Of a DNA stretch of 64,000 nt, positions 51,040 to 51,500 are shown in pieces. Each line of letters begins with the position of its first letter. Position 1 is the stretch's first letter. The translations under genes were made by a program, and so were the position numbers. This stretch comes from Escherichia phage momo, in the sequence record MN850580.1; one strand, given 5' to 3'. Under the pieces are notes generated by a model. The model searched no databases. It saw only the letters and a program-made list of their open reading frames with translations, and was not told the DNA's origin.

Positions 51040-51500
51040 GGGCTTGATTGCCCGTCTGATGCAGATATTAGATAACCATACTCAAAGAGTCAATAGGAAT
51101 TTTAAAAATATTTTTTTTTTTTTTGCAAAGATTGTAATGAAACGGGTGCGCGCGACTACCATAAAACAGAACTACAATCAAGAATTATTTTTCAATCCGC
51201 TACAAATTTTTCTGTTGACTTTTATTTCCAGATGTGGTAGCCTTGTGAGAAATGGCGACATCCCCACCTGCACCCACCTACCTGCACAATTCTAAAATGA
51301 TTTTTCTTGCCCGACCTGATTTTTCTCTGCACGTTTTGAAAATGAAAAAGCTCTTTGGAGATTACCTGCACAGTTTGAAAATGAATTTTCCCTTTGGAGT
51401 TCAAAATTTTCTCTACAGATTTCTCTACAGAACTCTACCTGCACAATCCTGAAATGAAAAAGCCCCCCTTACCTGAAAAATTTACCAGATAAGAAAGGCT
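51040..51500. repeat. non-coding region with T15 homopolymer (51104-51120) and four or five CTGCACRNTYYKAAAATGA direct repeats (51266-51465)
   Basis: Read directly; no credible CDS. Confidence 0.55.

Follow-up and report, generated by a model that had tools for sequence, protein, structure and literature searches.

Our study reports on a repeat-bearing spacer of Escherichia phage momo, a member of Felixounavirus, which we analysed within a window of 64,000 nucleotides (the whole stretch under record MN850580.1). From about 44.9 to 64 kb the minus strand carries every gene, and since this is the coding strand of every neighbouring gene, the features of the spacer are to be read on the minus strand. 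The genome is otherwise densely coding; the spacer is a non-coding interval of 517 bp (51014-51530) that separates a macro-domain gene from the first gene of a small-gene block (Table 1). The product of the macro-domain gene matches the Pfam Macro family (E = 1e-7, residues 25-141), the single Pfam domain found among ten neighbouring proteins, whose PHROG families are without known function. In minus-strand order the macro stop codon is followed by an intrinsic terminator, four direct repeats (R1-R4), a variable GC-rich segment, an AT-rich block, an UP-like element, a predicted promoter and a ribosome-binding region. By nucleotide comparison the 900 bases around the array are 99.3% identical to Escherichia phage allfine, and the same 900 bases match 287 Felix-O1-like records overall.

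Table 1. Features of the spacer and its two flanking genes, in minus-strand order (positions in the 64,000-nucleotide window).
Feature	Position	Strand	Remarks
Macro-domain gene ('phosphatase', Tk.4-like)	51531..52316	-	ORF; directly upstream of spacer
Intrinsic terminator	51450..51501	-	17-pair hairpin 51501-51460, then tail TTTTTCATTT 51459-51450; terminator scan
Repeat R1, core TCATTTCAGGATTGTGCA	51440..51457	-	overlaps terminator U tract
Tandem 12-mer, TTTCTCTACAGA x2 (plus) = TCTGTAGAGAAA x2 (minus)	51408-51431	-	within long R1-R2 spacer; repeat search
Repeat R2, core TCATTTTCAAACTGTGCA	51367..51384	-	73 bp from R1
Repeat R3, core TCATTTTCAAAACGTGCA	51328..51345	-	39 bp from R2
Repeat R4, core TCATTTTAGAATTGTGCA	51283..51300	-	45 bp from R3
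Variable GC-rich segment, about 58 bp	51224..51281		contains pseudo-copy ACCTGCAC at 51266-51273; relatives' alignment
Conserved AT-rich block, about 70 bp	51153..51223		minus AAAAGTCAAsAGAAAAATTTGTAGCGGATTGAAAAATAATTCTTGAyT...GTGGTAGTCG
UP-like element AAAAATATTTTTAAAATTCCTA	51094..51124	-	abuts -35 hexamer; distal A run = A14
Predicted sigma-70-type promoter, TTGACT-17-TAATAT	51065..51093	-	promoter scan; ahead of small-gene block
5' leader and ribosome-binding region, AAACTGGAGAATCTAAGAA-ATG	51014..51064	-	relatives' alignment
First gene of small-gene block	50825-51013	-	other side of spacer

The repeats are defined by the pattern CTGCACRNTYYKAAAATGA, which is matched without mismatch at 51282-51300, 51327-51345 and 51366-51384 and with one mismatch at 51439-51457. 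There are no matches elsewhere in the 64-kb window; the four observed compare with 0.12 expected by chance, and none of 100 shuffled sequences contained four. An independent repeat search recovered the same copies, in three direct-repeat families. Read on the minus strand the core motif is TCATTTy-N6-GTGCA, present in four copies of one orientation, each unit being about 20 bp long and the centres of the TCATTTy and GTGCA blocks lying about one helical turn apart. A weight matrix derived from these units gives the four sites scores of 32-35, and the runner-up in the complete 86,963-bp allfine genome reaches 11. The first-pass annotation of this DNA had counted four to five copies, of which four stand; the supposed fifth shares just the 8-mer ACCTGCAC with the others and falls within the GC-rich segment. 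Relatives have either of two alleles of this segment, unrelated in sequence but the same in length: one, found here, is G-rich on the minus strand; the other, found in Felix O1, is C-rich (CCCCTCTCCCCCTCTTACTCCCCC). A duplicated sequence was also listed in that annotation, and the repeat search recovers it as the tandem 12-mer of the R1-R2 spacer, which is present in Felixounavirus and replaced in Mooglevirus. The AT-rich block that follows the GC-rich segment is nearly invariant in an alignment of three genera.

A comparison of the spacers of Felixounavirus, Suspvirus (mistaenkt), Mooglevirus (HP1, Michonne) and Kolesnikvirus (Erwinia phages phiEa21-4 and Coenus) shows four units of the same orientation in all four genera, always downstream of the macro gene and upstream of the TTGACT promoter. 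Their spacing is 73/39/45 bp in Felixounavirus and Suspvirus, 75/41/45 in Mooglevirus and 37/37/39 in Kolesnikvirus. In a motif-blind alignment the TCATTT and GTGCA blocks are nearly invariant, with one or two substitutions each, whereas the inter-unit spacers diverge; the left flank of R4, GGTCGGGCAAGAAAAA, is conserved in the Erwinia phages too. From 35 distinct arrays we collected 137 units with 33 distinct cores, a count that is partly circular as the units were selected by regular expression, and the central six bases form the variable part. The main blastn matches to phiEa21-4 are the array and two short stretches of the macro gene, plus one weaker match at chance level. The metagenomic phage L139 has five units in a 2+3 arrangement, and one repeat unit is its sole nucleotide match. 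Despite the divergence of its protein, the macro gene is linked to the array in every relative examined, with amino acid identities of 45% in phiEa21-4, 42% in the Si3-type allele and 37% in L139.

The bases 3' of GTGCA change in all copies together by lineage (GTGCAGGT versus GTGCATAG), such that GGT follows the block in the coliphage and Salmonella-phage genera and TAG in Kolesnikvirus and L139. The viral contigs of IMG/VR, 2.9 million in number, were scanned with a paired-core pattern, the single-core pattern having proved too unspecific; the two-core pattern was found in Ounavirinae only. The matches outside this subfamily, in GTDB and IMG/VR alike, are unrelated coding or CRISPR-like repeats, those in IMG/VR being coding repeats. 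Natural variants in which R2 is missing or a core is mutated indicate that not every copy is essential. A module swap has its junction inside the array, which makes the array a junction for module exchange.

Between the repeats and the small-gene block lies the predicted promoter, which is annotated as such in phage ASO1A and has both hexamers conserved in four genera. The UP consensus reportedly published by Estrem and colleagues in 1998 reads nnAAAWWTWTTTTnnAAAAnnn and is said to cover the region from -38 to -59. Counted by eye against this consensus, AAAAATATTTTTAAAATTCCTA matches 11 of the 15 specified positions, and we take it to be a near-consensus UP element of the predicted promoter. 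The UP-like element proposed in the first-pass annotation is borne out, with the T tract as part of it, for one minus-strand sigma-70-type promoter (51093-51065). The arrangement shares with rrnB P1-type UP promoters an A/T-rich 22-mer that abuts a near-consensus -35 hexamer and a hexamer spacing of 17 bp, here kept in four genera. Where it departs from UP-element promoters generally is in the distal A run, which has grown from A5 to A14 and has done so in this isolate alone.

The homopolymer itself had been described as a T15 at 51104-51120; a T homopolymer is indeed present, but it is a T14 at 51111-51124 of the plus strand and the sole run of at least 10 in the window. Its length varies among isolates, as had been anticipated: the A run at the UP position measures A4-A6 in 28 related loci, A9 in allfine and A14 here. 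These lengths lead us to regard the T tract as the outcome of a recent growth of the distal UP subsite that is lineage-specific (A5 to A9 to A14), and the T14 as such is not a conserved feature of the UP element. The variation is consistent with slipped-strand mispairing or with homopolymer sequencing error, and, lying in a strong predicted promoter, the tract is probably both variable in length and prone to sequencing errors. Ranked by stability among the 60-bp stretches of the window, 51064-51123 comes fourth from the bottom, in part because of the lineage-specific T14; the lowest stability is that of the terminal-repeat region. At least six more small genes are preceded by the same 23-mer that the leader carries at 51017-51039. 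Arbiol and colleagues are said to have described, in 2010, T4-type PeSL (promoter-early stem-loop) cassettes. The downstream small-gene block is like these in its repeated cassettes of promoter, stem-loop and ribosome-binding site and in a gene content that is shuffled between isolates; the four-repeat array is unlike them, as it has a different sequence and occurs once, whereas the cassettes recur many times in the genome.

The array is unique in its genome; across four genera the number of copies, their orientation and their spacing are preserved; it is non-coding, and no structured RNA is detectable in it. From its two invariant blocks, their single orientation, the occurrence once per genome, the conservation beyond that of the flanks and the lineage-linked 3' flank, we propose that the array probably comprises cis-acting binding sites on DNA for one sequence-specific protein. 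An iterated protein-binding array had been suggested at first pass, and it remains the best reading of an element that is unique, of one orientation and conserved throughout the subfamily. The co-variation of the 3' flank with lineage fits a ligand that co-evolves with its sites, and the protein in question would probably be phage-encoded. That a protein binds the array, which protein this may be and how it might be linked to replication we infer from such comparisons. It is likewise probable that this array of iterated sites has gone undescribed. A full-text literature search found no description of it; the Felix O1 genome paper reports twelve direct repeats of 24 bp or more, of which those detailed are different elements, and the repeats annotated in the wV8 record are other elements again, with a coding sequence placed over the array.

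Our analysis suggests a model for the activity of such an array. The four direct repeats would serve as putative sites, each of about 20 bp, for one DNA-binding protein, and with the protein bound they would be assembled into one nucleoprotein complex, confined to one position of the genome. This complex may mark the start of replication, with the UP-boosted promoter and the AT-rich DNA just downstream helping to open the duplex. We rank this role, that of origin-type iterons, first among those considered, though tentatively and as a possibility. It is favoured by the presence of a unique direct-repeat array where the genome has one of its rare long non-coding intervals, next to a strong predicted promoter and DNA of low stability. 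Arrays of direct repeats are found at lambda ori and at T4 oriE. With the origin iterons of lambda ori, P1 oriR, F, RK2 and pPS10 (PMC4980987), and with T4 oriE, our array shares direct repeats of about 20 bp in one orientation. It further shares with iteron systems the single place in the genome, the non-coding context and the neighbourhood of AT-rich transcribed DNA, and its asymmetric motif of two blocks is as expected for a two-domain winged-helix binder.

Several observations speak against an origin. The spacing of the units is irregular, at 37-75 bp, whereas plasmid iterons lie about two helical turns (about 22 bp) apart, and we see neither an adjacent initiator gene nor a 13-mer unwinding element. 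None of the genes beside the array can be recognised as initiator-like or DNA-binding, although the small uncharacterised proteins encoded there could still bind DNA. The DnaA box TTATNCACA, allowing at most one mismatch, is absent from the repeats of this phage; the whole window contains 76 such matches against 91 expected, and only the Kolesnikvirus units reach 8 of the 9 box positions. The GC skew has no inflection at the array, but in this genome it tracks transcriptional direction. The least stable DNA of the window belongs to the terminal-repeat region instead, and the natural variants that have lost R2 or bear an altered core also count against this role. The replisome of Felix O1 is T7-like (PMC3185647), and the T7 origin is without iterons.

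The overlap of R1 with the terminator, together with the promoter downstream, fits a transcriptional role equally well as an origin. The terminator is the counterpart of Felix O1 t13, which at -21.8 kcal/mol is the most stable in that paper's table (PMC3185647), and it is annotated in the records of ASO1A, KhF3, wV8 and Barry. The pairing of its hairpin is kept in relatives via U-G to C-G changes, and in Mooglevirus a different 5' arm still pairs. A tail of sequence TTTTTCATTTC is also found 3' of another terminator, at 54139-54156. Bound by its protein, the array downstream of t13 could act as a roadblock, an insulator or a regulated read-through switch, separating the long early/middle unit from the terminal small early genes, and it may modulate the UP-boosted promoter. 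We rank such a transcription boundary close behind the origin and consider it somewhat unlikely. R1 and the terminator U tract share bases in Felixounavirus, Suspvirus, Mooglevirus and the divergent Si3 module, a terminator likewise precedes the array of phiEa21-4, and the array always lies upstream of the conserved strong predicted promoter. The RT-PCR data for Felix O1, in which RNA of ORF14 (on the array) peaks at 25 min and that of ORF13 and ORF16 at 5 min (PMC3185647), point the same way but are not strand-specific. Against a boundary role, the terminator scan found no terminator upstream of the array in L139, the array-promoter distance of 190-365 bp is far for an operator, and no such array accompanies the roughly 18 further terminator-like sites or the many promoter cassettes of similar type in the genome.

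It is improbable that the repeats act at the level of RNA, whether carried by read-through or by antisense transcripts and serving perhaps as a protein sponge or a type III (ToxI-like) antitoxin mimic. The repeat units of type III antitoxins are similar in length to the 37-45 nt of the array. With ToxI, CptI, TenpI and the pseudo-ToxI of phiTE the array shares tandem direct units of 36-45 nt, located in a lytic enterobacterial phage. The array region is transcribed in Felix O1 (PMC3185647), and its minus-strand RNA has a more stable fold than shuffled versions do (z = -4.1). This value, however, is due mainly to the terminator hairpin, and the plus strand gives z = +0.8. From 25 relatives RNAalifold predicted 40 pairs on the minus strand, of which one is compensatory, and the plus strand yielded no compensatory pair; this supports the terminator hairpin alone, in a covariation test that is low in power as the sequences are closely related. 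As far as these sequences allow, we reject a structured RNA on the folds and the RNAalifold results, which on both strands support only the terminator. Unlike type III antitoxins, the array has unequal periods in most genera and stands after, not before, a strong terminator; there is neither a toxin gene nor an arrangement of the type promoter-repeats-terminator-toxin, and Rfam gives no match to the array. A known RNA family was also rejected, the Rfam search of 49000-53500 yielding just a spurious mir-980 outside the spacer. Nor is there a host counterpart: the paired-core pattern has no match among Enterobacterales in GTDB (one genome per species), and blastn found none in 5,426 complete E. 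coli genomes or 72,556 plasmids, on which we reject a host mimic or type III antitoxin.

Lower still in probability we place a functionless relic, in which a serially duplicated terminator tail is kept by gene conversion and serves at most as a site of module exchange. The T-rich half of each unit does resemble terminator tails, such as that at 54139-54156, and the module-swap junction inside the array agrees with this account. It is opposed by the two nearly invariant blocks and by the retention of copy number, orientation and spacing, while the flanking proteins fall to 37-45% identity and the spacers diverge.

The position of the array relative to the genome ends bears on a further alternative. 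The record of Ro111lw has an exact repeat of 613 bp at both ends, which maps to 43829-44417 of the window; PhageTerm reports of 581 and 613 bp, and the 608 bp determined experimentally for UAB_Phi87, agree with this repeat. The sequence record of UAB_Phi87 is not opened at the physical end. With the terminal repeat at 43829-44417, the array lies 6.6 kb from this repeat and 7.2-7.7 kb (8-9% of the genome) from the physical end, and a genome terminus or packaging site at the array was rejected on the same ground. The records of KhF1 and TH10 break within the spacer, and since they do so at different points we regard these breaks as assembly cuts.

A T5-like injection stop would halt DNA entry after the terminal 7-8 kb in a first-step transfer, such that the small genes of host takeover are expressed first; if true, the array would hold back the rest of the genome until the proteins of about 16 small terminal genes are made. 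We think this quite unlikely. The T5 iss is, like our array, an untranslated and repeat-rich region that is better conserved than its neighbours, lies about 8% (7.9%) from the end and borders small early genes (Davison, bioRxiv 10.1101/866236). The genes of the terminal block here are small, have sigma-70-type promoters of their own and are read toward the end, and the units of the Erwinia phages carry CTATGCACA or TTATGCACG, each agreeing with 8 of 9 DnaA-box positions; TTATGCACA is among the boxes of the T5 iss (Davison, bioRxiv 10.1101/866236). The T5 region, however, spans 1.2 kb inside a 10-kb terminal repeat and holds inverted repeats, palindromes and paired DnaA boxes, none of which occur at the array; here there are four simple direct repeats and a terminal repeat of just 0.6 kb at a distance. 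In the units of this phage the DnaA-box match fails, ACCTGCACA agreeing at 6 of 9 positions, there is no sequence similarity to T5, and a literature search found no report of two-step injection for Felix O1-like phages.

A promoter cluster had been proposed at first pass, and we find it very improbable that the array is a tandem cluster of plus-strand promoters antisense to the macro gene, with the AAAAT of each unit as a -10 element. The plus strand of each unit does bear TAAAAT, GAAAAT or TGAAAT, and in phiEa21-4 two units score 9-10 of 12 as TTGCCA-17-TAAAAT or TTGCCA-17-GAAAAT; this spacing is not conserved in the other genera, and in our phage the corresponding TTGCCC lies 25 bp from the -10. 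Within 51260-51460 no promoter-like site passes the scan on either strand, no other promoter of the genome contains the motif, and the invariant GTGCA would sit in the promoter spacer, where conservation is unexpected. Sites for the host factors OmpR, marbox, IHF, CRP, NtrC, RfaH ops and sigma-54 were compared by eye with the units as consensus sequences, and none fits all four units.

The idea of a small protein gene over the array, whether as ORF14 of Felix O1 (listed at 8042-8254) and gp013 of wV8 on the minus strand or as the plus-strand ORFs annotated in Michonne and mistaenkt, is hardly credible and was rejected: ORFs of 50-66 codons are open on both strands of the spacer and are annotated in some records, but the frame is not conserved while the nucleotides are, the same conserved bases encoding KIHFQTVQV in Felixounavirus and ENSFSICAG in Mooglevirus and L127, the frame being broken in wV8 and Barry, the repeat periods not being multiples of 3 in Mooglevirus and Kolesnikvirus, the C-terminal part falling in the two-allele segment, and ORF14 starting, as read from its sequence, with TTG and without a clear ribosome-binding site. 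The earlier judgement that the region contains no credible coding sequence agrees with this lack of a conserved frame among relatives. RefSeq Felix O1 and allfine have nothing annotated over the array, and the ORFs drawn across it in several other database records are spurious.

Felix O1 and its relatives belong to the classic phages of Salmonella typing and have found wide use in biocontrol and therapy. The Felix O1 genome paper describes the control of transcription as unknown. A motif that occurs once per genome and is conserved while the neighbouring proteins fall to 37% identity is a concrete and small target, comprising four cores of 18 bp. The PhageMaP supplement for phage Bas63, with scores per gene, gives genes 95-99, which flank the spacer, as non-essential, and genome editing already works in this phage.

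Comparison of the Si3-type phages, which carry a divergent allele of the macro-domain gene, places a module boundary inside the array of four same-orientation repeats (R1-R4). In the two Si3-type loci (L029 and L151) identity is 42% for the macro protein, against about 90-99% for most of the flanking genes. A terminator and an R1 of its own come with the exchanged module, R2 is missing, and the module rejoins within the array at R3; the array is thus a junction at which modules are exchanged. A distant Ounavirinae-like phage (L139) has an array of five units in a 2+3 arrangement, with about 95 bp between the groups and a short macro gene (148 aa) upstream; one of its units reads GTGGATAG. 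As to the origin of the units, the tail TTTTTCATTTC is identical in a second intrinsic terminator, in the terminator whose U tract overlaps R1 (t13) and in the T-rich half of each unit; duplication of such a tail may have given rise to the array's units.

Features of the window and of the compared loci
Feature	Coordinates	Strand	Remarks
Promoter-like TTTACA-17-TAAAGT	50584-50612, 50113-50141, 48093-48121, 47298-47326	minus	recurrent upstream of small genes
Conserved leader and ribosome-binding 14-23-mer, AAACTGGAGAATCTAAG	51017-51039; also 45142, 46314, 47537, 48048, 47254, 49722	minus	
GTATTCACA	51509-51517	minus	8/9 positions of DnaA box; between macro stop codon and terminator
Second intrinsic terminator, tail TTTTTCATTTC	54139-54156	minus	
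Cluster of 25 tRNA genes	29067-33984	minus	
1.66-kb non-coding stretch	43227-44891		meeting point of two convergent transcription units
Direct terminal repeat of phage	43829-44417		inside non-coding stretch; mapped via exact 613-bp ends of Ro111lw
L139 (IMGVR_UViG_3300045988_063805)	463-1169 (locus)		distant Ounavirinae-like phage
L029; L151	3561-4556; 7165-8160 (loci)		Si3-type, divergent macro allele

Between R4 and the conserved AT-rich block, the segment at 51224-51281 exists as two unrelated alleles of equal length. In the allele of Felix O1 the minus strand is an extreme run of C, and a G-quadruplex could therefore form on the plus strand (GGGGGGAGGGGGAGTAAGAGGGGGAGAGGGG); the allele of the window is instead G-rich on the minus strand. 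The DnaA-like nonamer beyond the macro stop codon is kept in Felixounavirus and Suspvirus; the match alone is not significant, as the window holds 76 such matches against 91 expected.

The small-gene block beyond the spacer is built on recurring cassettes, with the leader common to at least seven of its genes. At least one promoter-like site overlaps a GC stem-loop, at 50555-50627, which also accounts for a spurious mir-980 match in Rfam; the 57-bp direct repeat of Felix O1 has the same arrangement of promoter and stem-loop. These promoter-like sites are similar to the cassettes known in T4-type phages as promoter-early stem-loops.

The non-coding stretch that encloses the terminal repeat also contains the least stable DNA in the window, and five repeat regions are annotated in the equivalent stretch of phage allfine. 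Two records under other names, GU169904 ('Staphylococcus phage SA1') and MG065664 ('Campylobacter phage A132'), match the Felixounavirus spacer over its full length at 87-94% identity, and probably include Felix-O1-like sequence that is mislabelled or a contaminant. For Felix O1 itself 22 tRNA genes are reported, against the 25 in the cluster of the window.
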